Assembly (NCBI GenBank): GCA_963617165.1
Contig: CAVEOF010000004.1
Span: forward strand, 3,264-67,263
Length of the DNA: 64,000 nucleotides
Reading direction: 5' to 3'
From: Coriobacteriaceae bacterium
Lineage (GTDB): Bacteria > Bacillota > Clostridia > Oscillospirales > CAG-272
The position numbers and the translations under genes were made by a program. Each line of letters begins with the position of its first letter. The first letter of the stretch is position 1. Of this stretch, positions 1,397-15,919 are shown in pieces. Under the pieces are notes generated by a model that was not told the origin of the DNA, made no database searches, and saw only the letters and a list, made by a program, of their open reading frames with translations.

Positions 1397-1470
1397 AAAA
1401 GATGCCTCCCTGCAAGCTTTGTTTTCCCCATTATATCATAGAAAAAGCAAGATTGCAAGGAGGTGTTCCG

Positions 1471-1510
1471 AAAATCGTTATTTTATGGAAAAAATCGTTA
1501 TTTTATGGAA
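1471..1510. repeat. Perfect tandem duplication of a 20-bp unit AAAATCGTTATTTTATGGAA (1471-1490 and 1491-1510)
   Basis: Read directly. It lies in the spacer between the glycosidase start (1396) and the last gene of the phage-like cluster (1578). Confidence 0.95.
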
Positions 1511-1577
1511 TTTTTCCTCTCGCGAAAGGGGTCTTCGGAACCTTACCGCGCCCGAAAGGCACGGGGAAGGGCGCCCC

Positions 1578-2432
1578 TTACGCGCTCATGTCCTCCTTCG
1601 TCACACGGTTTCGGGGCGAGGAGGACAGAAACGCGCGGATGAGCCGCTCCTTCATCGAGAGCCACGGGAGCTTGATCTCCGTGACGTAGCGGTACCCGAC
1701 AAGGTAGCCGCGCAGACCGACGCCGAGCAGCGCCGCGAGCTGAAAGATGCCCTCCGCGATCTCGGCGGCGCCCATCTCCTTGACGGACACGGCGACCGAA
1801 ACGGTGAAGAACAGGGAAAAGAGGGAGGGGATGAGCCCGCCGAGAAGACGGCGCGCCCGCGAGGCGGCGGGATCTTTCACCCGCTCGCATTTTTCGGATG
1901 CCCCGCCCGCGAGCATTCCCTCGGCGGAGAGGGAGAGGGGGCGGATCGCCTTCACCCGCAGATAACGCAGACGGTCAAGGAAGCCGACGGGCTTCCCGCC
2001 GAGAAAGGCGAGATAATCGTCGTAGGTTTTCCCGTAGGCGAGAAGCCGCCGTTTCCTGCGGTAGACGAGCTCGTCCTCCGCGTACCGCCCGAGGAATTCG
2101 GCAAAGTCGCCGAGCCTGTCCGCCTCCACCTGCCCGAGCGCGTCGGAGAGCAGGGCACTCGCCGCGCTCCCCCTCTCCCCGAGGAGAGCGAGAGACTCGC
2201 CCTCCCCCTCGAGAGAAAAGTAAATGACCGACGCGCACATCGCGAAGAGGAGCGCCCGCAGGGTGAATTCCTCCCCGAAGATCTCGGCGAAGCCGATGTC
2301 GGTAAAGGTGAAGATCCCCGCCATCAACAGCGCGAGCGCCGCGATGGCTTTTCCGATATGCTCGATCAGCGCGCGCTTGCCGCGGTCGGCGAGCTCTCCG
2401 CCGGCGAGAAGGGTGTCTTCAAAGCTTTTCAT
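1578..2432 (-). CDS. Membrane protein of unknown function (distal gene of the phage-like cluster)
   Basis: ORF 1578..2522. I prefer ATG 2432 (MKSFEDTLL) because it overlaps the stop of the upstream small ORF as ATGA (tcat at 2429-2432). Hydrophobic segments: AIAALALLMAGIFTF, LRALLFAMCASVIYF, LIPSLFSLFFTVSVAV, IFQLAALLGVGL. Confidence 0.6.
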   Translation of the reverse strand: MKSFEDTLLAGGELADRGKRALIEHIGKAIAALALLMAGIFTFTDIGFAEIFGEEFTLRALLFAMCASVIYFSLEGEGESLALLGERGSAASALLSDALGQVEADRLGDFAEFLGRYAEDELVYRRKRRLLAYGKTYDDYLAFLGGKPVGFLDRLRYLRVKAIRPLSLSAEGMLAGGASEKCERVKDPAASRARRLLGGLIPSLFSLFFTVSVAVSVKEMGAAEIAEGIFQLAALLGVGLRGYLVGYRYVTEIKLPWLSMKERLIRAFLSSSPRNRVTKEDMSA

Positions 2433-2665
2433 CGGCGTACCCCTCCCCTTCGTGTCTTTTTGCGGTTCCCTTCCGCAGAGCGGGCGCCCTCGCAAGCGAA
2501 GCCGAAGCCTTCGTGTCCGCAAGCGTAGCCTTTACGCTCGCAAGCGATGCTTTTGCGGGACGGAAAACTTTCGGGGCTGCCGTCGGCGCCTTCGCCCCCC
2601 GTCACCGCACCGAGGGGAAGGGCGCCGCGCGGATCTCCCCCGACGGACAGATCACGGCTTGTCAT
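2429..2665 (-). CDS. Small Cys/Gly-rich protein (78 aa), unknown function
   Basis: Internal ATG (2665) of ORF 2429..2704 with GGGGGAG about 7 nt upstream. The product starts MTSRDLSVGG and contains ACERKGYACGHEGFGFACEG. Its stop overlaps the next start as ATGA. Composition is only weakly protein-like. Confidence 0.35.
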   Translation of the reverse strand: MTSRDLSVGGDPRGALPLGAVTGGEGADGSPESFPSRKSIACERKGYACGHEGFGFACEGARSAEGNRKKTRRGGVRR

Positions 2666-3011
2666 TTTTTCGCTCCCCCTTTCGGAAGAAGTAGGAGCCG
2701 ACAAGGTTGCCGCACAGCCCGAAGAAGGAGACGACGATCATCTCGTCGGCAATGCTCGAAAGCAGCCAAAAGAGGCAGAAGGCGAAGAGCCAGAGCTGCC
2801 ACACCGCGGGCGAGGTGAGCCACCGCTTCACCCATCGGTAGAGGGGAAGCGCGGAGAAGAGAAGGAGCAGGAGCACGAAGCCCGAGAGCGCCGCCCTCTC
2901 TCCCGCCGCGCGGAAGAGCGGAAAGTAGGCGAGCGTCGCCCCCGCGGGCGGCAGGACGGAGAAGAGCAGTCCGAGCAGGGAATAGAGAAGACGGCTTCCG
3001 TTACGCTTCAT
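2652..3011 (-). CDS. Small integral membrane protein (119 aa, about 4 TM)
   Basis: ORF track. Hydrophobic stretches: LLYSLLGLLFSVL, FVLLLLLFSALPL, WQLWLFAFCLFWLL, VVSFFGLCGNLVG. It overlaps the upstream gene end (3001-3011). Confidence 0.6.
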   Translation of the reverse strand: MKRNGSRLLYSLLGLLFSVLPPAGATLAYFPLFRAAGERAALSGFVLLLLLFSALPLYRWVKRWLTSPAVWQLWLFAFCLFWLLSSIADEMIVVSFFGLCGNLVGSYFFRKGERKNDKP

Positions 3012-3585
3012 CGGGGGCTCCTTCGAGCGCCGCGCGCATCTCTTCCATGCGCCGCGCGACGAGCTCCTTCTGATACTGCGGCAGGGAGGAGGACGAGAAG
3101 ATGTCGTAGAGCAGCTCCACCTCTCCGAGAAGGAGAGATTTCAGATGCCCGATCTCGTCGGATCGCTTTTGCAGCTCCCCGAGCGCCTCGCCGAATCCGC
3201 GCACCGAATCGGCACACTCACGGAAGGAATCAAACATAATTTGTAATTGATTCTTTACAAATTCCGCGTTTTCTGCAGATTCCTCGCCGATTTTTTTGCT
3301 TTCTTCGCCGATCTCCTTTACCTTGTCGGAAAGGACACCGACCCCACCGCGAAGCAGGGGAAGCATCCCGCGCTTATAGGAAAAGGCAATGACGAGGGTA
3401 CCGAGCGCGGCGAACGCGCCGAACACGGCGCCAAGGTTCTGCGCGATGTCGCGGTAGAGAAGGGCAAAGGGATTTTCCTCCGCCTCCTCCCCCGCGATCT
3501 CGGCGCTCTCGGCACAGACGCCGACGGCAAAGAGGGCGGCGATCAGTGCGAGCAAAAGACAAAAGAGAAGAATTCGTTTTTTCAT
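3001..3585 (-). CDS. Membrane-anchored coiled-coil protein (194 aa)
   Basis: N-terminal signal/TM segment MKKRILLFCLLLALIAALFAVGVCA, a second TM LGAVFGAFAALGTLVIAF, then a helical charged C-terminal half. Confidence 0.6.
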   Translation of the reverse strand: MKKRILLFCLLLALIAALFAVGVCAESAEIAGEEAEENPFALLYRDIAQNLGAVFGAFAALGTLVIAFSYKRGMLPLLRGGVGVLSDKVKEIGEESKKIGEESAENAEFVKNQLQIMFDSFRECADSVRGFGEALGELQKRSDEIGHLKSLLLGEVELLYDIFSSSSLPQYQKELVARRMEEMRAALEGAPDEA

Positions 3586-3646
3586 TCTGTGATCCTTTCA
3601 TAAAAAGATGGTTTGCGTCCGCCGTCAGGCGGTTTTGACGCGCGGT

Positions 3647-4033
3647 TCAGAGGATCGTCGCTTTGCCGAGTCGCTCTTCGAGCGCCGCGAGCTTCTTTTC
3701 CGCCACGCCGAGACGGGAGTCGAGAAGAGCGAGCGCCTCCCCCGCCGCGAGCACCTCGTCGTCCGCACCGAGCTTGCCCCGCTCGACGCGGATCGGTGTG
3801 CAGACGACGGTCCTCCCGGGGAGAAAGAGCAGGGGCTTCGTTTCCCCCTCGGCGAGCGCCTCGCGCGGAAAGTCGGCGGCACCGCCGCGAAGAGGGAGAA
3901 TGCGTTTTCCGAGGCGCACCGTTCCCTCGACCCCTTCGCCGAAGCAAAGGTGCAGATCCGCGCCCGCACGGTCATAGCCGACGGAGGTGAGAAAGGCGCG
4001 CGCGCCGAGGATCTTGTAATGGAATTCGGTCAT
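3647..4033 (-). CDS. Phage structural protein, unknown role (128 aa, C-terminal coiled coil)
   Basis: ORF track. It follows the fibre-like genes in the same operon. C-terminus: LALLDSRLGVAEKKLAALEERLGK. Confidence 0.5.
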   Translation of the reverse strand: MTEFHYKILGARAFLTSVGYDRAGADLHLCFGEGVEGTVRLGKRILPLRGGAADFPREALAEGETKPLLFLPGRTVVCTPIRVERGKLGADDEVLAAGEALALLDSRLGVAEKKLAALEERLGKATIL

Positions 4034-4147
4034 CGGGCACCTCCTCCGACGGCTGTGCGCGGGGGACGACTCTCCCGTATACGCGCGCTCGTTTGATGAT
4101 TTCGCTTCATAAATGGTTGTCCTTTCTTTTAGTGTAGCGTCCGTGCA

Positions 4148-4624
4148 TCATGCCGACGCAACGCCGCGCACGACGGCTTGCTTCGTTCCGTCGTACCAGA
4201 GGAGGACGGTATAATGCTTTCCCGCGAGGGGAGTGAACACCCCGCCGCTCGTGTCGTCGCCCGTGAATTTGCACTCCTCGTCGGTGTAGAATTCGGGAGC
4301 CTCCGTGCCGGAGTCAAAAACAAGGATCGCGTAAAAGTCCGCCTCCGGCGTGTCGGGGAAGTAGTATTCCACCGCCCCGTCCTCGATCGTCGTAATGCGG
4401 TATTCGACCCCCGTCTCGAGGACACCGTAGGAAAGCGCGCCGCTCTTGACGCATCTTTCTCCGACGGGCTTTAAGGCGGAAAAGGTGTTTTTGCCGTTCC
4501 CGACGCGCAGCTGTACGCGCCCGTTCGCCATTTTCAGGAAGGCGATCTCCCCGTCCTTGAGGGGGACGTCGTGTGCCGTCCATTCCGCAGAGCTCCCGCG
4601 GAGAAACTGGAAAAAATGATACAT
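4148..4624 (-). CDS. Phage tail-fibre/receptor-binding-type protein with an Mtd_N / hyaluronidase-N-like opening motif
   Basis: N-terminus FLRGSSAEWTAHDVPLKDGEIAF resembles the conserved R-G-t-a-aeW-...-vL-.GE motif at the start of many phage fibre proteins. This is from motif memory. Confidence 0.55.
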   Translation of the reverse strand: MYHFFQFLRGSSAEWTAHDVPLKDGEIAFLKMANGRVQLRVGNGKNTFSALKPVGERCVKSGALSYGVLETGVEYRITTIEDGAVEYYFPDTPEADFYAILVFDSGTEAPEFYTDEECKFTGDDTSGGVFTPLAGKHYTVLLWYDGTKQAVVRGVASA

Positions 4625-4643
4625 AGCCTGAAGATCTCCTTAT

Positions 4644-5777
4644 TTATAATCTGTCGGGACGCTCGCTCGGCTTGCCGCAGTCAATGGTGAGGCGTATCTG
4701 ACCGCTCGTGAGTGAGGTGTGCCACGAGAGCAGATTGCGAAGGTAGGTGCCGAGGGTCGAGGTGCCGAAGTACACCGTCTCGAAGAAGGTGCCGTCGGTA
4801 AGAGAGGTGAAGAAGGCGTCCAGCGTTTGCTCCTCGGTCACGCCCGTCTTGTAGGCGGAGGGAGAAAAGGCATTTTCTTCGACCTCGGTGATCTTATCCT
4901 CTATTCCGTCAAGTTTGGTTGACAAATTCCCGTCTCCGCAGGGAATCACCGTGAGAATATCGCCGCTCTTCACGTCGGAGAAGAAATCGGAGACCGTATA
5001 ATTTTCCTTGATCCCCGTCTCTGTCGAACCGGTGAGGATCGTCGCCTTTACCTCGTCGATCTTGTCCGATGCCTCGCTTTTCGCACTCGTGAGATCACCC
5101 TCGATCTTCGTAAGACGCTCCTCGAGCTTGCCGCCGTCCGTCACGAGGTAGTCGGCAAAGGCGCCGCTCTTGATGTCGTCGAACATGTCGGCGAGGGTGT
5201 GCGTCCCGGTAATGCCGGTGCGGATGCTTTTTTCACGGAGCGTCGTCTGCAATGCCGCGATGTTCTCCCGCATCCCCTTCATGATGGGGCCGAGGATGCC
5301 CGAGGAGGTGACGAGCACCTCGGAGAGCGCGCCGTTTCGCACGCCGGCGAGGAAGTCCGCGAGCGTCGGGAAGCCGGGGACCCCCGACGGCATTTTCTTC
5401 ATATGCTCGTATGAGGTCGCGTCGTCGATCTCTCCGTCGATGCGGTCAAGACGCGCGGAGAGCTTTTCTTCCCCCGTCGACAGATACCCCGCGAGCGCGC
5501 CGCTTCCGATGTCGGAGAAGAGATCGGCGAGGGTGTGCCCCTCTCCGAGTCCCGTCGGCACCGCGTCGGCGAGAGAGCCGTCGCCCGAGGCGGCAATGTC
5601 GTCGAGCAGGGAATTGAAGCGTTCGATGAGGAAGAGAGGCAGACGGTCGAACGCCTCCTTCATTTCCGCCGCCGTGTACCCTCTGCCGCCGAACGCGCCC
5701 GAGGCGTTCGGTCGGGAGGGAAGAGAGGAGACGCGAAGGGCGGCGATCTCCGCGTTTTTGATTTTTTCGGTCGTCAT
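4644..5777 (-). CDS. Phage tail-fibre-like protein with five internal repeats of about 45 aa
   Basis: ORF 4644..6083. I prefer ATG 5777 (MTTEKIKNAEIAALRV) with GAAAGGAA upstream, directly after the stop of the 904-aa gene (5792). Repeat cores: HTLADLFSDIGSGALAGYL, PTLADFLAGVRNGALSEVL, HTLADMFDDIKSGAFADYL, YTVSDFFSDVKSGDILTVI, QTLDAFFTSLTDGTFFETV. Confidence 0.65.
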   Translation of the reverse strand: MTTEKIKNAEIAALRVSSLPSRPNASGAFGGRGYTAAEMKEAFDRLPLFLIERFNSLLDDIAASGDGSLADAVPTGLGEGHTLADLFSDIGSGALAGYLSTGEEKLSARLDRIDGEIDDATSYEHMKKMPSGVPGFPTLADFLAGVRNGALSEVLVTSSGILGPIMKGMRENIAALQTTLREKSIRTGITGTHTLADMFDDIKSGAFADYLVTDGGKLEERLTKIEGDLTSAKSEASDKIDEVKATILTGSTETGIKENYTVSDFFSDVKSGDILTVIPCGDGNLSTKLDGIEDKITEVEENAFSPSAYKTGVTEEQTLDAFFTSLTDGTFFETVYFGTSTLGTYLRNLLSWHTSLTSGQIRLTIDCGKPSERPDRL

Positions 5778-5791
5778 AAGAGTTCCTTTCG

Positions 5792-8506
5792 TCAGGTTTC
5801 GCCCGCCCGTATCCTTCCGCGCACGCGGAAGCGGTAGGCGATGGTATAAATTCCGAAGGGAGAGCGCGAGGCATCCGACGTGACGGCGATCTGCTGTTCC
5901 GTAAACCGCCTCGTCCGCAGGGCGAGCGGGACGGTGAAGGTGTCGTTTTCCGAGAGCGCGAGCGCCGAGAAGTCCACGTCCGAGAAGGAGAGAAAGCTCG
6001 CGGGCAGGATCGCCTCCTCCCGCAGAAGCTCGCGGTCGGTCGCGACGGAGAGCGAGAGACGGGAGGACGCATAGCTCTGACATTTCAGAACGAGCGAATT
6101 CTTCACCATGTCTTTTGCAAGGTGGGGAATTCCGCAGTCGTCGAGTGCCGTCATAAGCTCGTAGTGGGGCGCGTGCCTGTCAAAATCGTAAAAATCGGGG
6201 TGGATCACCCGTGAATACCGCGCTTTGTAGGCGTCGGCGTCAAAGTCGCTCCCGTTTTTGATCCGCTCGGGCGGGACGCCCCGCTTGTCGGTGTTGAAGA
6301 CGCAGATGTCGCCGTTTTCGGTACCGAAGAACAAAAGCTCGTCGATCGAGCGGAAGGCGACGGCGGGATGATAGGTGCCCCCCGTGAATTCCTCGGTCGG
6401 ATAGACCTCGAAGCGGTCCTCCCCCGATCCCGTGAAGTACACCGTCTCCCCGTCCTCCTCCGTGACGCTGTAAACGGTGTCGGTCACGGGCGCGTCGGGC
6501 GTCGGATAGGCAAGATAGCCCTCCCTCGCCGTCGGCGCGTAGCGGTAGACGCGCGTATCTCCCGTATAGGTCCCGATGCCCGAGAGGTAGTACCACTCGT
6601 ACTCGGTGCCCCCCGTTTCGTGGCGGTAGGTCGCGCGGGAATCGGCGAGGTAGACCCTGCCGCCGACCGCCGCGACGAGATAGCCGCAGAACACGTCGAG
6701 CACCACGGAAGAAAGATCTTCCGTGAGAAGTTTCGCGTTGACCGCGTGTGAGCGGCAGACGATGCTTCGCGCAAGGTTCAGCGTCTGCTTCGAGAGCGCC
6801 GAGATGCCCGTCTCCGAAACGAACAGGGGATCGTCGAAAAAGGAGATCGCCCCGCCGCACGCCGAGATCCCCGCGTGAATGTAGGAGGTCGGATAGATCT
6901 TCGGCAACAGGTCGATGCCCGTCTCCTTCGGGGTGTGGTAGTAGATGCTGCCGCCCCCGTCGTCTCCTTTTTTGAAGACGACCAGAGCGTCGCCCGTCGA
7001 GAGGAGCGCCTTCGTCGGATAGGCGCCCACCCCGTCGTTGAAGTAATTCAGAACGCCGAAGTAGGTCGGGTCGTTTTGCCCCGTGTTTCCTCTCGCGCTG
7101 TAAAACACCGTGTTCGGGAAGGCGGGATTCCCCGAAAGGAAGACCCGCCCGTCGAATACCTCGGCGGCAAGACACCGCGAGATCGCCGAGGCGCCCCCGT
7201 CGGAAAAGCTCCCCTCGGAGAGAAAGTTCGTCCCCGCCGCGCTTTCCGAGTATTCGGAGGCGGAGAGGGTGCCCGTGATCGAGACCTCCCGGTTCTTCAT
7301 GAAATTCCGATTGTTCAGAGCGAGAAGGAGCCCCGCGATGTGTGAGCCCTCGGTGACGGTGGTCACGGTGTAGTCCGTCAATCCGTCGATGCTGACCGAG
7401 ATCGAGGAGGCGGGCTCGCAAAGGGGCAGATACATGGTGAGCGAGGGGCTCCACGTGTAGGTGTCGATCTGATGGTCGGTGCTCGACGGCGCCCCCTCGA
7501 TCTTTTCGTATTCCGCCATGCCGTAGGCATAGTGGATCGTCATCGCGGGACAGCCCGTGAACGCGTCCGCCCCGATCTTTGCAAGCTTCTTTCCGAAGTG
7601 AATGACCGTGAGCGAGGTGCAGTTCCGAAAGGCTTCGTCCCCGATCTCGTACAGCTCCTCGGGGAGATAGACCGTCGTGAGATTCGGACAGCCGGAAAAC
7701 GCCTTTTCTCCGACGGTGAGGACGCCCGCCGACATGCGCACCTCCGTGACGGGGGTAAGCCCCGAGAAGGCGTCCTTCGCGACGTGCGTGACGCGGTAGG
7801 TCCTTCCTCGGATGGTCGTGAAGTACGGAACGTAGATCACACCGCCGCTCGCGCGTCCGAGCCCCGAAAGCTCGCAATACCCCGCCTCCTCGTCGATGAT
7901 GTTGTACAAGAGCCCCGGGGAGCCGTAGGCGAAGAGAGAAGGGGAACCGACAGAGTAGCGCTCCTTGAATTTGCACGTCAGAAGGTTCCGCTGCTCGTAT
8001 GCTTCACCGTTGATGTAGGTCGTCGGGACGTAGGGGGAGTATTGCCCCACGCCGTCCCCGACGATCTTCGCCTCCCCGCTCTCCGACACGCGGAGCATGT
8101 TCGTGCCGTCGAGGATAAAGAGGCAGGAGCCCGAGGGGAAGGAGACGCTCTTATGAGCGGCAAGCGTCGCGATGGCGCGCGGCGTCGTGAGCGTGTCCCG
8201 CTCCGCGACGGGAAAGCGGTAGAGCAGTGTCCCCGCGTGGACGAGCAGATAGTCGGTCTCTCCCGCTCTCTGCCTATGAAGTCCGTAGATCCTCTTTCCG
8301 AGCGAGAGGATCTTGCGAAAGCCGGGGACGCTCTCCGTAAGCGCCGCGCCGACCCCGTCGTAATCCCGCCACATGTTCGTCAGACGGGAGAAGCGGTTGC
8401 CCGAGATCCGACTTCCGTCCCCGGAAAAGTCCACCCCGCGCATTGCCGTATAGCAGCGGCTGTATTCGGTTCCGCTTTTGTAATTATAGCTTGATCTGTA
8501 ACTCAT
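5792..8506 (-). CDS. Large virion protein (904 aa) with embedded BspA-type leucine-rich repeats; candidate tail nozzle or receptor-binding protein
   Basis: ORF track. LRR_5-like segment: HVAKDAFSGLTPVTEVRMSAGVLTVGEKAFSGCPNLTTVYLPEELYEIGDEAFRNCTSLTVIHFGKKLAKIGADAFTGCPAM. Its position after the MCP and an adaptor-like gene mirrors the podovirus order adaptor then nozzle. That role is an inference. Confidence 0.6.
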   Translation of the reverse strand: MSYRSSYNYKSGTEYSRCYTAMRGVDFSGDGSRISGNRFSRLTNMWRDYDGVGAALTESVPGFRKILSLGKRIYGLHRQRAGETDYLLVHAGTLLYRFPVAERDTLTTPRAIATLAAHKSVSFPSGSCLFILDGTNMLRVSESGEAKIVGDGVGQYSPYVPTTYINGEAYEQRNLLTCKFKERYSVGSPSLFAYGSPGLLYNIIDEEAGYCELSGLGRASGGVIYVPYFTTIRGRTYRVTHVAKDAFSGLTPVTEVRMSAGVLTVGEKAFSGCPNLTTVYLPEELYEIGDEAFRNCTSLTVIHFGKKLAKIGADAFTGCPAMTIHYAYGMAEYEKIEGAPSSTDHQIDTYTWSPSLTMYLPLCEPASSISVSIDGLTDYTVTTVTEGSHIAGLLLALNNRNFMKNREVSITGTLSASEYSESAAGTNFLSEGSFSDGGASAISRCLAAEVFDGRVFLSGNPAFPNTVFYSARGNTGQNDPTYFGVLNYFNDGVGAYPTKALLSTGDALVVFKKGDDGGGSIYYHTPKETGIDLLPKIYPTSYIHAGISACGGAISFFDDPLFVSETGISALSKQTLNLARSIVCRSHAVNAKLLTEDLSSVVLDVFCGYLVAAVGGRVYLADSRATYRHETGGTEYEWYYLSGIGTYTGDTRVYRYAPTAREGYLAYPTPDAPVTDTVYSVTEEDGETVYFTGSGEDRFEVYPTEEFTGGTYHPAVAFRSIDELLFFGTENGDICVFNTDKRGVPPERIKNGSDFDADAYKARYSRVIHPDFYDFDRHAPHYELMTALDDCGIPHLAKDMVKNSLVLKCQSYASSRLSLSVATDRELLREEAILPASFLSFSDVDFSALALSENDTFTVPLALRTRRFTEQQIAVTSDASRSPFGIYTIAYRFRVRGRIRAGET

Positions 8507-8523
8507 ACTTTACAAAACCTCGC

Positions 8524-9351
8524 TTATGCCCATTGCAGAACGTCGCGGTAGGCGGTGTCCAGATTCGGAGAGCCGGTGTATTTTAAGGCGCTGATCCCCG
8601 TGCGATAGAGATTCATGTAATACTGCGAGCGCTCGGGCTCGTCGTCGAGCCAGAGGTAGGAGGCGGTGAGCAGGGGCAGAAGATGTGCGGCGGGGGCGGG
8701 CACGTCGATGACGCCCGCCGGGGCGTCCGACACGATCTTCGACGGCGCGCGCCGATAGCGGAGCGTGACGCTCCCGCGATAGTCCCGCGGCAGCATCAGC
8801 GTGTCGCCGTAGACCGACGCCCCCGCGATCGGCGTGCCGTCCCCGTCCCGCACGATGCCGTCGGGGCAGAGAAAATCGGCGGCAAGCGCGCGAAGGGAAA
8901 AGGAGCGCAGGGGCGCGAGGGTCGGAATGTCCTCTTTCTCGGGCGGGCAGGCGTCAAAGACGGCAAAGTCCCGCACGGTGTAGTCGTACGCACCGCAAAA
9001 TAAGAGGTACTCCGCCTCTCCCCGGTACTCCTTTACGAGCACGGAGGGCGCGTCGAATTCGCGGGGCGTCTCTCCCTCGGGGCGGTAGCTTCCCCGTCCG
9101 CCGACGCGGAAGCTGTAGCTCTTTCCCGAAAGGGGGACGGAAAGCTCCGTCCCCGCAGGATGAAAGATCTCCCTTCGGCTCTCCCGCGGCACTGCCGCCT
9201 CGCAGAAAAAGTTCAGCTCGCCGACGGCGGGATATTCCGTGACAAGGAGAGCAAGCGCCCGCCTCGCGGCATATAAGAACCGTTCGCCGTCCCCGACGCC
9301 CCCCTCAAAGCCGAGGGCGGCGCATTCTTCGGCAAGTTCCCGATAGGTCAT
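8524..9351 (-). CDS. Phage protein (276 aa), candidate head-tail adaptor
   Basis: ORF 8524..9462. I prefer ATG 9351 (MTYRELAEECAAL) with GGAGGA upstream, 20 nt after the MCP stop. The role is inferred from position only. Confidence 0.5.
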   Translation of the reverse strand: MTYRELAEECAALGFEGGVGDGERFLYAARRALALLVTEYPAVGELNFFCEAAVPRESRREIFHPAGTELSVPLSGKSYSFRVGGRGSYRPEGETPREFDAPSVLVKEYRGEAEYLLFCGAYDYTVRDFAVFDACPPEKEDIPTLAPLRSFSLRALAADFLCPDGIVRDGDGTPIAGASVYGDTLMLPRDYRGSVTLRYRRAPSKIVSDAPAGVIDVPAPAAHLLPLLTASYLWLDDEPERSQYYMNLYRTGISALKYTGSPNLDTAYRDVLQWA

Positions 9352-9371
9352 GGGAGGATCCTCCTTTCGGA

Positions 9372-10427
9372 TTACAGTGAGGTCGCGCCGGTGACGGCGT
9401 CCTTGCTGTCGACGGCAAGCAGAATGTGCTTGTAGGTGCCGAAGCCCACGCCGAAGCGGCATCTGCCGTTCCAGAGATAGTTGCCCGTGTGGTTGTCCAC
9501 CCAGTTCGTGACGGTGAGGGGCACGCGGTTGTAGAACATGTTGCCCGAGAGGTTCTTGTTCGCCTCCGAGGACATGATCATCACGCGGTCGTCACTCGTC
9601 TGCCAGTTCGGGAGCACGACGATGTTCCAGTTGCCGTACTGAAGGTTGATGTCGTTATAGCCGTTGCCGAGCGCACCCTCCGAGCCCGCGACCTTCTTCG
9701 CGATGATCTCGGCGGCGGGACGGTTGCCCGGCAGGATCAGCGTGTCGGCGGTGTAGCCGAGCGCCTCGCCGTTCTCGTCCTTCATGTTGCGGAGCTTGAC
9801 GGCAAGCTCGCCGAGCGCTTCCTCAAAGACGGAGGCGGAGCGGGTGCGGCTGTCCGTACCGCTCGCAAAGATGTTGCCGTAGAAGTAGTTCGACTGCACG
9901 CCCTTCGTGTCTCCGATGCCGTAGTCGTGTGAGGAGGAGAAGAGCGCCTTCCCGTCGGGCGCGCTCAGGTCGAGCGTCGCCTTTGCGAAGCTGCCGCTCG
10001 TCGACGTGCCGTTTGCCAGCGCGTATTCGCAGATCTTGTGAATGGTCTTGTAGTAAGCGCGGGTGAAGTTTTCGGCACGGCGCTTCGCGTCCGCACCGAT
10101 GCCGTAATTCGCATCCTCCATCATCTCGGCGGTGATGACGAATTCCTTCGTAAACTGGATGTGCTCGATGAATTTGCGGTAGGTCTCCGCAACGGTGTCG
10201 TTCTCCGCGCCGTTGCCCTCTTCGGTGGCACGGAAGACGTCGAATTCGTTCTGCCCGACGATCGTCTCGCCGAAGCGGTTGCTCTTTTCGATGTTGAAGA
10301 GCCAGTCGGCGATGCCGCCCTTCTTCGTCAGAAGGTCGCTCTCGTGCTCGATGACCATTTTGATCGGCGTCTCGAGCTTGCCGATGGCGGCGTTCGCGGT
10401 ACCGGAATATTTCGAATAAAGTATCAT
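9372..10427 (-). CDS. Phage major capsid protein
   Basis: 351 aa. It sits after scaffold- and decoration-like genes and has typical size. Sequence features (FIEHIQFTKEFVITAEMMEDANYG ... NWNIVVLPNW) resemble HK97-fold/Mu gpT-like coat proteins, from motif memory. Confidence 0.75.
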   Translation of the reverse strand: MILYSKYSGTANAAIGKLETPIKMVIEHESDLLTKKGGIADWLFNIEKSNRFGETIVGQNEFDVFRATEEGNGAENDTVAETYRKFIEHIQFTKEFVITAEMMEDANYGIGADAKRRAENFTRAYYKTIHKICEYALANGTSTSGSFAKATLDLSAPDGKALFSSSHDYGIGDTKGVQSNYFYGNIFASGTDSRTRSASVFEEALGELAVKLRNMKDENGEALGYTADTLILPGNRPAAEIIAKKVAGSEGALGNGYNDINLQYGNWNIVVLPNWQTSDDRVMIMSSEANKNLSGNMFYNRVPLTVTNWVDNHTGNYLWNGRCRFGVGFGTYKHILLAVDSKDAVTGATSL

Positions 10428-10451
10428 GGTTTTCTTTCCTTTCCAAATGTT

Positions 10452-10862
10452 TTATCGGAAGTTCACGCGCACGGTGTCGCCCGACGCCGCGGCATGGCAG
10501 AGGTCGACGATCGTGGCGACGCCGCTCGTGGTCGTGGCGGTGACGCCGTACGCCGCGCTCGAGGTGCTGTCGACGGCGAGGGTGACGACGCTCCCGACGG
10601 CAAGACCCGTGGGTGCCGCCGAAAGGGGTGCTTCGAAGATCACGTCGGGCGTGACTGCATAGACGGGGACGGTCGCCTCGCCCGCCGCCGCATCCGCGGC
10701 GGCAATGTAGGTCGGCTTTGCGGTCGCCGCCGCATGGGTCAGGGCGCCCGAGGTGAGGACGAGTGCGTCGCCAGCGTGATAGGCGGTCGACGCCGTGGCG
10801 GGCAGACGGAAGATCTCGGGAACGTTCGTTCCCGCGTTCAGAATTTTGACAGGTCGGAACAT
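10452..10862 (-). CDS. Small Ala/Thr-rich head protein (decoration- or DUF2190-like)
   Basis: 136-aa ORF between the scaffold and the MCP. Low-complexity A/T/V-rich beta-type sequence. Confidence 0.45.
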   Translation of the reverse strand: MFRPVKILNAGTNVPEIFRLPATASTAYHAGDALVLTSGALTHAAATAKPTYIAAADAAAGEATVPVYAVTPDVIFEAPLSAAPTGLAVGSVVTLAVDSTSSAAYGVTATTTSGVATIVDLCHAAASGDTVRVNFR

Positions 10863-10876
10863 GGTGGTATCCTTTC

Positions 10877-11395
10877 TTATTTCGTGACTTTTTGATAGAG
10901 GCGGTGAAGCTCGGCGTCGCCGAGACCGAAGAACAGCTCCCGCGCCGCGGAAAGCTCTCCCTCGCTCATGCCGTCGCCCGTCGCGCGTACCGCCTTCGGG
11001 ACCGCGCTGTGAAGATGGGCGCGGTTGTCCTCCCGCGGGATACGCCGCGGGGTCGTGGTGGCAAGGTATGCCTCTCTCGCACTCAGACCGAGATCGCGCA
11101 GAGCGCCGTAGCGCGCGGGATCTTCAAGCTCGGTCAGGTCGCCGAGGGAGGAAAGCTCGGGGAATTCCCGCTTTAAGGCGAGAAGGTCCTCCGCCGCGAG
11201 CGCGGCGTAATCGACGGAGGGCGCATTTTTCTTTTGCGTCTTTTCCGCGGGCGCCTCCGCCTCTTGTGCATCCCTCGCTTCGGGTGTGCTTTCTTCGGGG
11301 GAAGGGGTGTCGGTCGGTGCGTCGGTGTCCGCCGCCTCCGACGCGTCCGCAGAGAACGCGTCGGGCAGACTCTCGTTTGCGATCTCGCTCGTCAT
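10877..11395 (-). CDS. Phage scaffolding-like protein
   Basis: 172 aa with an acidic disordered N-terminus (DASEAADTDAPTDTPSPEESTPEARDAQEAEAPAE) and a helical C-terminus. Located upstream of the MCP. Confidence 0.5.
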   Translation of the reverse strand: MTSEIANESLPDAFSADASEAADTDAPTDTPSPEESTPEARDAQEAEAPAEKTQKKNAPSVDYAALAAEDLLALKREFPELSSLGDLTELEDPARYGALRDLGLSAREAYLATTTPRRIPREDNRAHLHSAVPKAVRATGDGMSEGELSAARELFFGLGDAELHRLYQKVTK

Positions 11396-11398
11396 GGC

Positions 11399-11536
11399 TT
11401 AGCCCTTCTTTCCGACGCGCAGGTCTGAGCCTGCCGTCTTCGTTGCCTTCGGGTCGCCCGACGCGACGTTTTTCGGCGCCGCGATCTTGCCGCCCTTGTT
11501 GGTTGCGTAAACAGAATCCTTCGTAGGTCTTTTCAT
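11399..11536 (-). CDS. Small basic protein (45 aa), unlisted in the ORF track
   Basis: My translation: MKRPTKDSVYATNKGGKIAAPKNVASGDPKATKTAGSDLRVGKKG. GGAGA lies about 5 nt upstream of ATG 11536. It fills the gap between two head genes. Confidence 0.4.
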   Translation of the reverse strand: MKRPTKDSVYATNKGGKIAAPKNVASGDPKATKTAGSDLRVGKKG

Positions 11537-11602
11537 CGTAATCTCCGTTCCGCGGCTTTCACCTTTCGGAAAGCCGCTGATTTGTTAAGTTTTCTTTGCG
11601 TA

Positions 11603-12349
11603 TCATTGCTTTTCCGCTTCCTCTTTGAGACGACGGCGCAGATAATCGGTGTAGGATTCGTTCGGCTCGCGATCGGACTTTACGGTCTCCGATCCGCTTG
11701 CCTTCCCGTTGACCTTTTCCGCGTAATCGCCGAAGGCGCTCGCCTCCTCGTCCGAAAAGCCGTAGCTCTTCGCGTATGCGGCGGCACCCTCTCGTCCGAG
11801 CCCCTCCGTGAGGATGGTGCGGTAGAGGGCACGCCGTATCTTTTCCTTGGCAAGTGCGATGCCGCCCTCGGCGGCTGCTCTTGCCGACGCCTCGTCAAGC
11901 CCCATGCCGAGCGCCCGCCGATAGGCGGCGTCCGCGTCGAGCGTCTCGCTGTCCGCGATGGTCTTGTACGCCCGCTCGAGCAGGTCGTTTTGCGACTTCC
12001 GATAGGCGGAAAGATAGCTTTCGTAGCCGCGGCGATTGGCTTCTTCTCCCTCGCTTGCCGCGCGGTAGGCGGCGTTTTTCGCCCGTGCCCGTTCCGCGTA
12101 TGCCACGCCGTCGAGATAATCGCCGTAGCCCGAGGAGGACAGCCCGAGGGCGGCGAGGCGTTCGGCTCTCGCGCCGTAGGTGCTCTTCGCTCTTTCGTAG
12201 TCCGCATCGATGTCGGCAAGCCGTTCGTCGAGTGCGGCACCCGTGTCGGTGCCGTAGGAGGACAGCCATTTTTCATAGCTTTCCGCCGAGTTCGAGAGCT
12301 GCTTGTTGCGCACGTACTGTTTGAGAAAATCTTCGAGTGTTTCGCTCAT
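11603..12349 (-). CDS. Phage head-module protein (248 aa, Ala-rich helical), unknown role
   Basis: ORF 11603..12457. I prefer ATG 12349 (MSETLEDFLKQY), which forms an ATGA overlap with the portal stop (tcat at 12346-12349). Confidence 0.6.
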   Translation of the reverse strand: MSETLEDFLKQYVRNKQLSNSAESYEKWLSSYGTDTGAALDERLADIDADYERAKSTYGARAERLAALGLSSSGYGDYLDGVAYAERARAKNAAYRAASEGEEANRRGYESYLSAYRKSQNDLLERAYKTIADSETLDADAAYRRALGMGLDEASARAAAEGGIALAKEKIRRALYRTILTEGLGREGAAAYAKSYGFSDEEASAFGDYAEKVNGKASGSETVKSDREPNESYTDYLRRRLKEEAEKQ

Positions 12350-14151
12350 ACGGTCTCCTTTCTTTGTAGGTCGGACGTCGCTTTTTCGAGCGTGTCGCCG
12401 AAGTATTCGACGTTCTCTCTCGCGTAAGGGTAGTGCGCCCGCTCCTGACACTGCCAATACCGAAGCAGGGTCATCGGGTCGGACGGATCGCCGAGCGCGC
12501 CCGCGCGCAGATTTTCGAGGTTCTTTTCCCAGATCTCCTCGCGTCTGCCCTCGATGCCGCCGTTCGGATCGATGGAGAAGAGGTAGCCGTCGTCGTAGTA
12601 ATATTCACCCGTTTTCGTGTCGTAGTCGAGAAAGTCGTAACGGTTGAACATCGCGTCGTGGATCCGCCCGTAGGCGTCGCGGTAGGAGAGCTTGCGCGGC
12701 TCGTCCGCGAAGGCGAGAAAGTGTCGGAAGATCAGACGGTCGATGTCCGCGTAGGCGGTGTGCTTCATCTTCCGCTTGGATTCGAGACGTCCCGACGCCT
12801 GTCGGATGCGCAGCTCCCGCGCGTACCCCGATTCGTTGCCCGTGTAGTTGATCCCCTGATAGGCGTCCGAGATGCCGAGCGTGCGCTTGGCGTGTGAGTA
12901 CAGGCGCTCCGCCTCCGCGATGTCCTGTGAGATGTCGGGGGTGGTGTCCACCTTGCCGTATTGCGAGAGGCTCTCGCCGGGCTTCATGCGGATCACCTGA
13001 CCGAACACCGAGTTGTTCAGGCTGACGGTCGCGTCCTCGGGGAGGACGGGCGTGATGCCCGCGCGCAGAAGCTTCTGAAGGATCCGCGTCTCCACCTTGT
13101 TGATCGCCTGCTGCTCGGGACGGATGTATTCGCAGTCCGACTGACCGAACAGGCTTTTTTCCCCCGAGGTGTTCTTGCGGATGACGATGGGAAAATCCTT
13201 CGGCACGTAGTAGGGAAGCCGCGTCCGCTCCATGCGGAAGCCCTCCCCCTCGGGGATCGGACAGCCCGCGGCGTCCAGCACGGGGGAGAGAGAAGAGATC
13301 ACCGTACCGTCCGAGAGCGCGATGTCCCGGTCGAGCACCTCGTGCGTCTCGTCGGCGAGTACGAGGGCGGGTGTCTTACAGACGCAGAGCTCCGCCTCCC
13401 GCCCGCAGTTTCGGCATACCTTCCGCTTGCGGCGGTAATAATTCGGGAGGTCGAGAAGCGCGAGCTCTCCCGAGAAAATGAATTCTCCGACCTCTCCCTC
13501 CTCGTCTCTGTAAAAGCAGAGAATGACGGTGACCGCCTCACCGGCATCCGCGGAGGGGAGCTCCTCCCACTCGATGTCCGCTCGCGCGAGGTCTTCTTCG
13601 CTCACACCGTATCGGCGGACAAGCTCCGCCTTCGTCGTGACGAAGCGGAGAAAGCAATAGTCCATGTCCGAGATCTTCGTGATGTTCGGCTGTGGAATGA
13701 AGTCGCGTGGAGAGAGGCAACAGACGCGGATGCCGCCGAGGTCGCCGCCCCGCCCGACGGGATTTTCCCATTCGACGAGGAAGACGCTACCTCCGTAAAT
13801 GTAGGTATAGCGCTCGTCCATGTCGTTCATTTCTTCAAAGGGGAGCATGTCGCGCACGGAGGCGCAGAGCCGCTCGACGGATTTTGCGTTGCGGTCCTTT
13901 TTCTCGCTGTAACAGCTTGCCTCGACCTTCGGGGGCGGAATTTCGGAGGAGACCTGACTTTCGACGATCTCGTAGGTGATGTTTCGCACGGTGCCCGCCC
14001 GCTCTTTCGACCCGTCAAGCTCGTCGGAGCCGCGGTATTGCTGCATATGACGCAGAAAAAGCGCGTCGGTCTCGGCAAAGCGGTCGCGTGCGTTTTCGTA
14101 AAGAGTGCGGAAATATTCCGTCCGCGCGGATTGGCTTTGTTCTTTGTTCAT
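12346..14151 (-). CDS. Phage portal protein
   Basis: 601 aa, immediately downstream of the large terminase with an ATGA overlap (14148-14151). Size and position are typical. Contains a CxxC-x6-CxC knuckle (KVCRNCGREAELCVCK). Confidence 0.75.
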   Translation of the reverse strand: MNKEQSQSARTEYFRTLYENARDRFAETDALFLRHMQQYRGSDELDGSKERAGTVRNITYEIVESQVSSEIPPPKVEASCYSEKKDRNAKSVERLCASVRDMLPFEEMNDMDERYTYIYGGSVFLVEWENPVGRGGDLGGIRVCCLSPRDFIPQPNITKISDMDYCFLRFVTTKAELVRRYGVSEEDLARADIEWEELPSADAGEAVTVILCFYRDEEGEVGEFIFSGELALLDLPNYYRRKRKVCRNCGREAELCVCKTPALVLADETHEVLDRDIALSDGTVISSLSPVLDAAGCPIPEGEGFRMERTRLPYYVPKDFPIVIRKNTSGEKSLFGQSDCEYIRPEQQAINKVETRILQKLLRAGITPVLPEDATVSLNNSVFGQVIRMKPGESLSQYGKVDTTPDISQDIAEAERLYSHAKRTLGISDAYQGINYTGNESGYARELRIRQASGRLESKRKMKHTAYADIDRLIFRHFLAFADEPRKLSYRDAYGRIHDAMFNRYDFLDYDTKTGEYYYDDGYLFSIDPNGGIEGRREEIWEKNLENLRAGALGDPSDPMTLLRYWQCQERAHYPYARENVEYFGDTLEKATSDLQRKETV

Positions 14152-15512
14152 ATCGGTTCTCCGTATTTTTTCAAGAGATAATTCCGCGCTTCGGCATCTG
14201 CCGCCTCATAGTCCTCCCACATGTCCGCCGTCCATACGGTCCGCCCCGCGGCGGGCGCCTTCTCTGCGGGCCGCGTGTAAAAGACGGCAAACCCGCGCAG
14301 GGCGTCGGGCGCGTGCGTGATCTCGTGCGGTTCATTCGCACAATCGCTCGGACGCCGACGGTCGATCTGCAAGGCGGGCAAGCATCGGATGATCTCGGTG
14401 CAGAAGCAGAAGATCTTCAGCCCGACCCGCCCGCCTTTCTCGGCGAGAAGCTCCTTGATCGCGAGCCAGCCGCTCTCGCGGTCGTTCGAGGTCTTGGTAA
14501 AGGTCACGCCGAAGGAGGAAAAGAGCGCCGCCTTGGACTTTCCCGTCTCCTGCGAGCGGGAGAAGAGATCGGGCGGCGCGAGCGTCGCATAGATCTCCTC
14601 CGACGCGGGCGTGCGGGAGAGGATCGCCTCGGCGGCTTTTCCGATGGGAAGATCGGACTCGCAATACTCGCGATAGACGTAGGCACATCCGTCGGGAGAA
14701 AGCGCGATCCAAAGACAGGCGAGGCGGTCAAGCCCGTAGTCGATGGTACGGTACTTGCGCCATGAGGAGGGGATCGTAAATGGCTCCGCAACGTGGAGCC
14801 GCCTCGAAAATTCGGGGAAATACTGCCCGTCGAAGATGTCCCACTCCCCGTAGAGGAGCGCCTTTCTCTCCCGCTCGGGCAGGGCGAGGAGCCGCTTTTT
14901 GTACATCGGGTCGGCGCGCATCAGAAATCCGTTGTCCTCGATCCGCGCGGGGAGGAATACGCGGCGAAGACCGTCCCGCCCCGTGAAGGGAATCCCCGCG
15001 GGGGAAGGATCGATAAAGCGTGCCTTGACCCATGCGTGCCCGATGCCACCGGGATTTGTCGAGGACTTGATCTGCCGAGGGAAGTCCGTCGCCCCGCGCA
15101 GGCGGGATAGCAGATAGATGTATTGCCCTTCGGTAAAATGCGTCAGCTCGTCAAAGCGGATGACGTCGTATTCGGCACTCTGGTATTGGTACACGTCGTT
15201 TTCCGTGGCACAGTACCCGAAGTCGATGAGCGACCCGTTCGCAAAGCTGCCCGTGTGGGAGGAGGCGTGATAGGAATATACCTCTTTCGGATAAAGAGAA
15301 AGACTCGTTCGGATGAGGGATTTTTCAAGCTCGGGTAGCGTCCGCCTCAGGATCAATTGCTTCGAGCGCGGATACTTCATCGCGTAAAGGAGTGCGTCCA
15401 CCAGTTGCCCGTAGGACTTTCCGCCTCCCGCCGCCCCGCCGAACAGAACCTCGGACTCTGTCGCATCAATAAAAGATTTTTGTCTTTTTGTAACTTCAAG
15501 TTTACACTTCAT
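14148..15512 (-). CDS. terL: Terminase large subunit
   Basis: 454 aa. Walker A is GGAAGGGKS and Walker B-like is YDVIRFDELTHF. The C-terminal half is nuclease-type. ATGA overlap with terS (15509-15512). Confidence 0.85.
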   Translation of the reverse strand: MKCKLEVTKRQKSFIDATESEVLFGGAAGGGKSYGQLVDALLYAMKYPRSKQLILRRTLPELEKSLIRTSLSLYPKEVYSYHASSHTGSFANGSLIDFGYCATENDVYQYQSAEYDVIRFDELTHFTEGQYIYLLSRLRGATDFPRQIKSSTNPGGIGHAWVKARFIDPSPAGIPFTGRDGLRRVFLPARIEDNGFLMRADPMYKKRLLALPERERKALLYGEWDIFDGQYFPEFSRRLHVAEPFTIPSSWRKYRTIDYGLDRLACLWIALSPDGCAYVYREYCESDLPIGKAAEAILSRTPASEEIYATLAPPDLFSRSQETGKSKAALFSSFGVTFTKTSNDRESGWLAIKELLAEKGGRVGLKIFCFCTEIIRCLPALQIDRRRPSDCANEPHEITHAPDALRGFAVFYTRPAEKAPAAGRTVWTADMWEDYEAADAEARNYLLKKYGEPI

Positions 15513-15847
15513 GCTTGCGACACGACTTCGAGGGTCAGGGCGAGGCTGTTATCTTCGGCGGGAGCTTCGCTCTCCTCCGTGAGAAGAAACTTTACGAACG
15601 AAGGGTCATAGTGACGGCATAACGCTTGGTCAATCAGATAATCTCTGCGGATTTCGTTGCACTCTCTATACACCCTGTCGAAGGCTTCATCCTCGCGGTA
15701 CGCACAAAGCTCTGCGACACGACAGCCCGATATCCTCGCGAACTTTTCAAAGCTCGGGGCTCCCTCGCCGTCAAACTCCGTAAAATAGCGGAGCATCCTG
15801 CGGGCGAGCCTTTTGCGGGCGGCGCCGCTCTTCGATCCGTCCTTCAT
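15509..15847 (-). CDS. terS: Terminase small subunit (candidate)
   Basis: 112-aa ORF translationally coupled to terL. HTH-like FEKFARISGCRVAELCAY. First gene of the cluster. Confidence 0.5.
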   Translation of the reverse strand: MKDGSKSGAARKRLARRMLRYFTEFDGEGAPSFEKFARISGCRVAELCAYREDEAFDRVYRECNEIRRDYLIDQALCRHYDPSFVKFLLTEESEAPAEDNSLALTLEVVSQA

Positions 15848-15919
15848 CCCGGTCTTCCTCCTTTCCTTTCGGTCTGCCTTCGGGCGGGCGTTCCGGACCG
15901 CTCTCTCAAAGGCATCTCC

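Follow-up and report, generated by a model that had tools for sequence, protein, structure and literature searches.

The 64,000-nucleotide stretch analysed here (the window; positions 3,264 to 67,263 of contig CAVEOF010000004.1, assembly GCA_963617165.1, from a Coriobacteriaceae bacterium placed by GTDB in the Oscillospirales, CAG-272) carries a phage-type block of 14.3 kb (~14 kb) at nt 1578–15847. Its open reading frames (ORFs) all lie on the minus strand, are separated by short gaps, and specify packaging, head, short tail and fibre proteins, followed by three terminal membrane proteins. The block is flanked by the gene for an ABC-F ATPase on one side and by that for a GH32/GH130-like protein (glycoside hydrolase families) on the other, in agreement with the ABC-F and glycosidase neighbours named in a preliminary description made from the sequence alone. 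That description had counted seventeen co-directional ORFs. The co-directional arrangement and the coordinates stand, while the number of genes is revised to 16, all of them intact. The ORF removed from the count (91 aa, nt 2429–2704) has a TTG start, is Gly/Arg-rich, contains no hydrophobic segment and is probably not a gene, because it has homologues in L001 and L002 only (L numbers denote the loci and contigs compared) and is uncalled in L001, an assembly with an identical portal. The four junctions previously described as start/stop overlaps (nt 15509–15512, 14148–14151, 12346–12349 and 2429–2432) do read ATGA on the minus strand, the fourth being doubtful since one of its partners is the 91-aa ORF.

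Family searches of the ORFs used Pfam, PHROGs and, for ten of the proteins, NCBIfam, which returned no names for nine of the ten. Among the cluster ORFs these databases gave no match to any tape-measure, tube, sheath, integrase, repressor, polymerase, primase or endolysin/cell-wall hydrolase family, and the earlier view that no lysogeny, replication, long-tail or lysis-enzyme genes are hidden in the block is thereby upheld. No known RNA family was found inside or beside the cluster (Rfam), and there is neither a flanking tRNA gene nor an att-like repeat. One genome per bacterial species was scanned for related loci; 182 matched, and the best 80 loci were fetched. Ratios of nonsynonymous to synonymous substitution (dN/dS) are given relative to the three nearest relatives.

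The small terminase subunit gene, terS (112 aa, nt 15509–15847), lies upstream of terL and overlaps it at an ATGA junction. TerS has no direct Pfam or PHROG match and is assigned to the P22 gp3 type via a profile link: the family hidden Markov model (HMM) matches, at 2e-17, a TerS of 174 aa encoded on phage contig L098, a protein that Pfam classifies as GP3_package. The dN/dS of terS is 0.13–0.16. A TerS without a DNA-binding domain, as in the gene transfer agents (GTAs) RcGTA and FpGTA, was considered and is not claimed; the two proteins compared are 112 vs 174 aa long and align only weakly to each other (E = 0.01). The shorter one, inspected by eye, retains a helix-turn-helix-like stretch. 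The large terminase subunit (TerL, 454 aa, nt 14148–15512) matches phrog_979 (E = 2.4e-48), Terminase_3 and Terminase_6N, with a dN/dS of 0.04–0.09, and the portal protein (601 aa, nt 12346–14151) matches phrog_156 (E = 4.9e-26), with sub-threshold matches to SU10_portal and P22_portal.

Between the portal and capsid genes are four ORFs. The first encodes a conserved protein of 248 aa (nt 11603–12349) that is syntenic in 67 loci and has no family match in Pfam, PHROGs or NCBIfam; in phage relatives it corresponds to the beginning of a 534-aa protein (family HMM on L098:11920–13524, 9e-16). The second, a basic protein of 45 aa (nt 11399–11536), shows 50–69% identity (tblastn) across chromosomal and viral loci, and its gene is called in L001, L102 and L103. 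The third (172 aa, nt 10877–11395) is acidic (34 D+E vs 19 K+R), syntenic in 76 loci and likewise without a family match; its position and acidity suggest that it is the scaffold. The fourth (136 aa, nt 10452–10862) is a decoration/cement-like head protein, matching phrog_24113 (E = 4e-19) and, weakly, phrog_122 (head decoration) and Phage_cement_2, which fits its earlier labelling as a head protein.

The major capsid protein (351 aa, nt 9372–10427) matches phrog_371 (E = 1.6e-5). It aligns to annotated phage capsid genes at 23–27% (tblastn), its homologues carry Pfam Phage_capsid_4, and it is confirmed to be of the HK97 type. The terL, portal and capsid roles proposed from the sequence are thus all borne out by family matches. 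The capsid dN/dS is 0.03–0.05, and the protein is on the whole highly conserved, apart from a few fast-evolving lineages in which identity falls to 54%. A phmmer search with the capsid protein found no matches, and PDB sequences searched with profiles built from the portal and capsid alignments likewise gave none. The AlphaFold model of the capsid protein is poor (predicted local distance difference test, pLDDT, 54), the alignment being shallow with 78–95% identical sequences, and a Foldseek search with it returned nothing significant, HK97-fold capsids including that of SU10 being top-ranked; neither was used as evidence.

The next gene specifies a head-to-tail adaptor (nt 8524–9351) that is SU10-adaptor-like (SU10_adaptor, E = 3.5e-5; 24.8 bits, just below the cut-off of 27). 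It starts at nt 9351 and is 275 rather than the 276 aa first given. It is followed directly, without long-tail genes and as in a podovirus tail, by a gene for a 904-aa protein (nt 5792–8506). The AlphaFold model of this protein (pLDDT 85) returned podovirus nozzles as top matches in the PDB (Foldseek), namely those of cyanophage A4 (7.5e-16), Klebsiella phage Kp9, T7 gp12 and P22 gp10 (8eap_D, 6e-11), and by this modelled structure it is a tail nozzle of the T7 gp12/P22 gp10 fold. A BspA-type leucine-rich-repeat (LRR) domain (LRR_5, E = 9e-18; aa 238–325) is inserted within the nozzle fold, and the nozzle homologues, of which there are at least 617, are all ~900 aa long and carry LRR_5. The insert may have been captured from host BspA-type genes. 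The same kind of repeat is present in a 799-aa host surface-type protein encoded in the window (nt 32596–34995, plus strand), and the next large protein (nt 36753–38309, plus strand) shows repeat-like stretches by eye and no Pfam match. The gene order had earlier been likened to that of T7-like podoviruses. That analogy holds for the architecture and for the nozzle fold, while the sequence links lead to P22 and SU10 (SU10-type portal and adaptor, P22 gp3-type TerS).

Downstream of the nozzle gene, the stretch extending to the 194-aa gene (nt 3586–5777 in the window) ranges from about 0.7 to 3.4 kb across species. Both the length of the fibres and the set of genes vary, a pattern that receptor-binding determinants would be expected to show. 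In the window it includes a fibre-like protein of 377 aa (nt 4644–5777) that has a conserved N-terminus and, by eye from the translation, ~4 repeats of roughly 60 aa. N-terminal matches to this protein occur in 66 loci, at least 60% of its length is aligned in 5 loci only, and its counterpart in the compact versions (L102, L103) has 128 aa. The 158-aa protein that follows (nt 4148–4624) is present in about 20 loci only; weak matches to phrog_6049 (tail fibre) and Mtd_N at aa 6–55 agree with the fibre-type role first suggested for it. A variable-region protein of 128 aa (nt 3647–4033; dN/dS 0.23–0.36) has homologues in just 7 loci. No homologues of a tail needle or a tailspike were detected.

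Three membrane proteins, described here from hydropathy, complete the block. The first (194 aa, nt 3001–3585) has an N-terminal signal/transmembrane segment, a second transmembrane segment and a long cytoplasmic region. It is syntenic in 62 loci, and its family HMM finds a counterpart in phage relatives, encoded by their third-from-last late gene (E down to 2e-9). The second (119 aa, nt 2652–3011) has four hydrophobic segments, is holin-like by size and position, and its family HMM finds proteins at the end of the late operon of the phage relatives at 1e-32 to 1e-37. The third (284 aa, nt 1578–2432) has 3–4 hydrophobic segments and is specified by the final gene of the cluster, both in the window and in L102 and L103; the corresponding HMM matches the terminal late gene of the phage relatives at 1e-31 to 3e-38, and one of these phage homologues shows a sub-threshold match to SLATT_4.

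Distribution, selection and phage ancestry

The 80 fetched genomes are uncultured Clostridia/Eubacteriales bins from human and ruminant guts, with one mislabelled exception. Homologues number at least 1895 for the portal and at least 1735 for the capsid protein, and the best 120 portals are almost all 62–68% identical. In a library reduced at 50% identity, the entire portal family is covered by one representative (1071 bits) and the next relative scores 667 bits, which marks the family as a tight clade. Searches with all window proteins (tblastn) recovered the whole cluster in the same order from essentially every one of the 80 loci, with median identities to the window of 75% for the capsid protein, 71% for TerL, 62% for the portal, 41% for the nozzle and 34% for the adaptor, compared with 68% for ABC-F. 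The same reduced gene set is found throughout the family members examined.

Two host contexts are seen. In about 46 loci the immediate upstream neighbour of terS is ABC-F, and a divergently transcribed MutS2-like gene together with a pantothenate-kinase-like gene occupies the upstream side in 13 other species loci, as well as in L102 and L103. The downstream neighbours are host genes, being a glycosidase gene in the window, a DinG-like helicase gene in L103 and a gene for a large protein without assigned function in L102; no integrase or lysin is among these neighbours. Contiguous integrase, repressor, replication and lysis modules, as in a functional temperate prophage, are absent from the window locus and from L102 and L103.

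The preliminary description noted that no ORF in the window looked disrupted, and this extends across species. In loci that are not truncated at the edge of a contig, the core genes are full length (terL 75/75, portal 79/79, capsid 73/73, nozzle 70/71). Every cluster gene has a dN/dS of 0.03–0.44 (0.05 for ABC-F), and dS is similar to that of ABC-F. Codon usage does not set the cluster apart from the host genes of the window (relative synonymous codon usage, r = 0.96; GC at third codon positions, 0.79 for both), and in 51 species the GC content of the cluster follows that of its flanks (r = 0.94, range 0.42–0.67), being 2.7 points higher on average. In 42 genomes, pairwise identities of cluster proteins are correlated with those of ABC-F (Mantel r = 0.77 for TerL, 0.79 for the portal and 0.67 for the nozzle, each p about 5e-4), and portal-defined clusters nest inside ABC-F-defined clusters.

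The preliminary description offered three readings of the block: a decayed prophage remnant, a capsid-forming satellite and a domesticated, GTA-like locus. The first would make it a decaying prophage whose disruptions are still to come. Its lysogeny, replication and lysis-enzyme genes are indeed missing, as they are in deletion remnants, yet the core genes are intact in 70–79 independent species genomes, dN/dS lies in the purifying range given above, an identical reduced gene set is kept in every member, and a conserved promoter (described below) is confined to the chromosomal family. The intactness of the genes and the selection on them in about 80 species refute this reading, to which we assign a very small probability.

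Relatives among phages point to where the locus came from. The best match to TerL in a cultured phage is that of the temperate Bacillus phage PK1 (43.5% identity), which has recombinase, repressor, recombination and sigma-factor genes, that is, full lysogeny and recombination modules. Portal and capsid matches in IMG/VR are mostly short fragments of the same chromosomal element, one of them including ABC-F, and the presence of such fragments there means that virus-mining pipelines count the locus as a virus. These fragments are the 4–17 kb contigs L082–L097, L107–L111 and L117. There is also a large set of viral contigs of 36–45 kb (GC 0.34–0.50) that have a module order in common with the locus, running from the 45-aa protein through the scaffold-position protein, decoration-like protein, capsid, adaptor and nozzle to the fibre and, as judged by family profiles, ending in the same three membrane proteins. 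Identity to these phage relatives is 65% for TerL, 50% for the portal, 52–58% for the capsid protein and 31–45% for the nozzle.

The contig sampled from this set (L098/L113; IMGVR_UViG_3300029705_000297 type, 41.8 kb) has a serine integrase gene adjoining terS and a reverse transcriptase gene, and in it the 534-aa protein precedes a polyvalent protein of 2597 aa that contains LPD3, LPD38 and nuclease domains. In L098 the polyvalent protein spans nt 13540–21333 and its nuclease domain is of the barnase/EndoU type. At L098:1167–7378 the reverse transcriptase gene is accompanied by two nearby paralogous small genes (phrog_9958), and the region resembles a diversity-generating retroelement. MT836833 (L104), a phage record of 10.8 kb from human faeces, shows the head, adaptor and nozzle order followed by a tyrosine integrase gene, and its adaptor also matches SU10_adaptor. 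Relative to the sampled phage contig, the locus is without the integrase, the reverse transcriptase and the polyvalent protein, and has kept the virion genes, the packaging genes and the membrane trio. The shared modules together with these missing genes indicate that the locus is a reduced version of a temperate podophage lineage. One circumstance named beforehand as contrary to domestication was that close relatives carry the same genes inside a complete prophage from which this copy had recently lost its flanking modules. Complete temperate relatives do exist, at 50–65% identity; as these phages fall outside the chromosomal family, they indicate origin and do not refute domestication.

That related temperate phages circulate in the same habitats would suit the second of the three readings, a satellite in the manner of the capsid-forming phage-inducible chromosomal islands (cf-PICIs), which would make its own heads, rely on a helper phage to be induced or replicated or for other needs, and spread horizontally. 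The locus is also small and, as in capsid-forming islands, has only packaging and virion genes with a TerS of its own. cf-PICIs possess integrase, regulatory and replication modules along with head genes, and have no tail genes. The block differs on both counts: no integrase, excisionase, replication or regulatory module was matched, and it encodes its own adaptor, nozzle and fibres. Moreover, it occupies a fixed place in each of two host contexts, its divergence parallels that of ABC-F, its GC content and codon usage are ameliorated in every host, and it lacks att-like repeats and a flanking tRNA gene. A satellite is therefore very unlikely and, like the remnant, effectively rejected.

Promoter, leader and candidate regulator

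A promoter-like element, TACTTAC-N18-TATACT (nt 15920–15950, minus strand), is conserved upstream of terS, and its -10 is of the extended kind, with TGT ahead of the hexamer. No alternative sigma factor is named for the -35 element, which was not recognised as the known consensus of one. The family motif is TACTTAC-N18-TAnnnT with fixed spacing, where the hexamer is mostly TATAAT and is usually preceded by TG two bases ahead. It is found 50–310 nt upstream of terS in 66 fetched loci as well as in the window, and 67 of the 74 motif matches in the 3.4 Mb searched are terS sites, with a single occurrence in the 64-kb window. The motif was not found upstream of terS in the phage relatives. In the window, TACTTAC is located in the loop of a GC-rich hairpin that is followed by a T-run, and which looks like the ABC-F terminator.

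Between the promoter and terS is a 5' leader of 72 nt (nt 15848–15919, minus strand), in which a closing helix (UGCCUUUG / CGAAGGCA) surrounds a hairpin with a GGUCCGGAAC loop. Leaders of the family have a conserved UUGCCGAGG-like 5' start that pairs with a stretch immediately ahead of the ribosome-binding site. The paired arms show compensating changes from one species to another, and all of the folded leaders (8/8) are closed by this helix. Helices formed between a leader's own arms average 7.35 bp, vs 6.12 +/- 0.14 bp for permuted arms, and reach at least 7 bp in 40 of 62 cases vs 22.4 +/- 3.1 for permuted arms. The loops of the inner hairpin are also conserved, as UCCGGA in some clades and AGUCAUGAA in others, and the leader matches no Rfam family.

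A small winged-helix gene (HTH_36 / DnaD_N-like, 129–201 aa) is present near the cluster in five genomes (L015:1589–1975, minus; L046:3863–4465, minus; L089:1375–1773, plus; L017:~463–1101, minus; L065:5–160, minus). Four of the TACTTAC matches that are not terS sites lie ~70 nt upstream of this gene, in four of the five genomes. Since the gene there carries the same promoter as the cluster, the arrangement suggests that its product is a candidate self-activating regulator of the cluster.

Probable function and comparison with known systems

Two features by which GTAs and viriforms are recognised (PMC9662315; Lang et al. 2012) are present at the locus. It is a caudovirus-derived structural and packaging cluster in a cellular genome without replication, integration or excision genes, and it has evolved in concert with its host, as seen in vertical inheritance, purifying selection and host-like composition, capsid co-divergence excepted. 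GTAs are further characterised by particles that carry largely random host DNA instead of the element's genome, by a head too small for the DNA that encodes the particle, by cellular control of production and by delivery of the DNA to recipient cells; the family-specific promoter and the candidate regulator may bear on such control. We consider the block to be most likely a domesticated derivative of a temperate short-tailed phage and a host-owned locus for DNA-filled, podovirus-like particles of the GTA/viriform kind. The third reading of the preliminary description, that of domestication, is strongly supported by the synteny at chromosomal sites and by the dN/dS values.

If so, expression might proceed as follows. 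A dedicated regulator, for which the winged-helix protein is a candidate, would switch on the TACTTAC-N18-TATAAT promoter, giving a transcript that begins with the structured leader. The P22-gp3-type TerS and TerL would then fill capsids by a headful mechanism, with chromosomal DNA as the predicted substrate because the locus lacks excision and replication functions and has a TerS of the P22 headful type. Adaptor, nozzle and fibres would finish the particle, the nozzle repeat domain and the variable fibre genes setting its target specificity. The three terminal membrane proteins, which would derive from the ancestral lysis-cassette position, would release the particles, perhaps with a cell-wall hydrolase encoded elsewhere; this role is proposed because they are at the end of the ancestral late operon. 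The particles would most likely serve gene transfer, as opposed to killing or some other use.

Several points weigh against this interpretation. The GTA function is inferred from sequence comparisons, and a head of the ancestral size could hold the whole 14-kb locus. Capsid divergence does not track that of ABC-F in the 42 genomes (r = 0.15, p = 0.06). Almost all carriers are metagenome bins, which limits the assessment of presence or absence within clades and of copy number. The candidate winged-helix regulator has no counterpart in the window at E < 0.01, and only 5 loci have one near the cluster. For particle release, no peptidoglycan hydrolase is seen in the cluster or in the 64-kb window. 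Lastly, the order is permuted in L078 (nt 1–12526), where adaptor, nozzle, fibre and membrane protein genes come first and are followed by terS, terL, portal and a gene for a 231-aa protein. All ORFs of this locus are intact, its capsid genes are outside the fetched stretch, and it has no TACTTAC motif.

A different use of the particles was also weighed, in which the locus is domesticated all the same and its particles are PBSX-like killers of related strains or have another host function, for example DNA release. The comparative evidence is the same as for a GTA and does not discriminate between downstream uses of the particles, while the LRR domain of the nozzle and the variable fibres are evidence of selection for target binding, a requirement of both uses. 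The full TerS/TerL/portal machinery is under strong purifying selection and would be unneeded by a pure killer; yet PBSX packages DNA too. No podovirus-type killer particles are known. On balance this alternative is unlikely, though clearly better placed than the satellite, and the same question was left open for FpGTA by its authors (PMC12946183).

FpGTA of Faecalibacterium prausnitzii, described in 2024–2026, is a podovirus-type GTA-like element (Nat Commun 2026; PMC12946183), with particles of 40 nm that contain 8.5–9 kb DNA and a proteome dominated by portal and capsid protein; its proteins are RCH50844–RCH50853 (Table S2 of PMC12946183), and its two regions are CP030777 2536737–2546346 and 2672270–2677176. 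The statement in the preliminary description that a podovirus-type GTA would be new is therefore superseded: the locus is a new and very widespread family of a kind with one published example, and not a first. In the literature searched, the FpGTA paper is the sole description of a podovirus-type GTA-like element in gut Clostridia, and the present family is undescribed. Both are chromosomal, near-ubiquitous structural clusters of podovirus type in gut Clostridia, without integrase or replication genes, and share the order TerS, TerL, portal, scaffold, capsid and then nozzle. The FpGTA nozzle was annotated against P22 gp10 (8EAP), the structure that the window nozzle also matches.

The two are set apart here by annotation and published description. 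The FpGTA capsid protein (RCH50849.1) is annotated as N4-gp56 family, whereas that of the window has no NCBIfam match at E <= 0.01, and a tblastn search with the latter against 50,697 phage records found no N4-like phage. FpGTA has a Prp-like cysteine protease gene between portal and capsid, while none of the four ORFs in that interval here matches a protease family in PHROGs, Pfam or NCBIfam. Its genes are divided between two operons, of which the second, located 125 kb from the first, has the fibre, holin and endolysin genes, in contrast to the single 14-kb operon described here, which includes fibres and three membrane proteins and in which no endolysin is seen. Finally, particles, DNA and proteome have been shown experimentally for FpGTA, whereas the present family is known from genes alone. 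No Faecalibacterium genome is among the best 80 portal loci.

RcGTA of the Alphaproteobacteria is likewise vertically inherited, under purifying selection and slightly above its host in GC content; it has dedicated, host-integrated regulation and has lost phage replication and integration genes. It differs in being siphovirus-like, with a tape measure and tail tube, in belonging to a different phylum and in its unrelated regulators (CtrA/GafA), and no homology is implied. PBSX of Bacillus subtilis is a phage-derived particle retained by a Gram-positive host, with its late operon under a dedicated factor and with host DNA as its packaged content, but it is of myovirus type, has kept a repressor as well as a lysis cassette, and acts by killing instead of by transfer. 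The gut podophages (L098/L113, the 36–45 kb contigs and MT836833) have the module order, the 45-aa protein and the membrane trio in common with the locus, from which they differ in the presence of integrases (serine in L098/L113, tyrosine in MT836833) and in lacking the TACTTAC promoter. Likeness to P22, SU10 and T7 consists of the nozzle fold (T7 gp12 and P22 gp10), the SU10-type adaptor and portal matches and the P22 gp3-type TerS reached via the profile link; sequence identity is about 10% or less, and the nozzle here has the BspA-type LRR insert.

GTA-like packaging of 4–10 kb fragments has been reported for CAG-115, Onthomonas, UBA11524, UBA1829, UBA1206, HGM11616, QANA01 and UMGS856 (PMC12946183). 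Four metagenome-assembled genomes (Onthomonas, Gemmiger and two of Faecalibacterium) were searched in that study, and a candidate operon was found in one of the Faecalibacterium genomes only (PMC12946183). With its defined gene set, promoter and phage ancestor, and its presence in at least 182 species-level gut genomes (human and ruminant), the locus is a concrete candidate for this packaging, for which the study assigned no gene cluster in several lineages of uncultured gut Clostridia and which serves as a precedent for the GTA reading. A more far-reaching proposal, which we put forward tentatively and with less than even confidence, is that the locus represents an ancient GTA family, domesticated separately from FpGTA across a large radiation of uncultured gut Clostridia, with a circuit of its own (TACTTAC promoter, leader and self-regulated winged-helix protein) and a lysis module of membrane proteins only, and that it may be the machinery behind the 4–10 kb packaging that particle DNA from human faeces has revealed for Oscillospirales and Christensenellales lineages.

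If active, the locus would open a major path for chromosomal genes to move among abundant uncultured gut anaerobes. It would also provide a clean natural example of podophage domestication, in which the integrase, the reverse transcriptase and the polyvalent anti-defence protein have been lost and the head, tail and packaging genes and the membrane trio kept. There is a consequence for annotation as well, as public records label the cluster proteins 'hypothetical' or 'leucine-rich repeat protein' and fragments of the cluster are filed as viral contigs.

Neighbouring genes in the window

The sampled remainder of the 64-kb window gave no match to phage families and carries genes for an amino-acid ABC transporter, sepF, lspA, a PcrA-type helicase, mnmE-jag-yidC-yidD-rnpA and glycan-utilisation genes. 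The ABC-F gene beside the cluster is one intact ORF of 641 aa; in the other assembly of the same organism (L001:6014–7941) it is annotated as two separate genes (of 190 and 451 aa), a split that is probably an assembly or frameshift difference. By eye from the translations, mnmE, jag, yidC, yidD and rnpA (nt 48214–52625, minus strand) follow their usual origin-proximal order, which would place the cluster at most about 35 kb from the likely replication origin region. An island of low GC content (0.41–0.46, vs 0.56–0.62 around it) at nt ~44700–47800 specifies an AraC-type regulator and a GH127 beta-L-arabinofuranosidase, and looks like a recent acquisition. Nearby, a flavin mononucleotide (FMN) riboswitch (nt 43745–43859, plus strand; 106.8 bits) is situated upstream of the gene for a multi-pass membrane protein (nt 43930–44649) that is presumably a riboflavin transporter.

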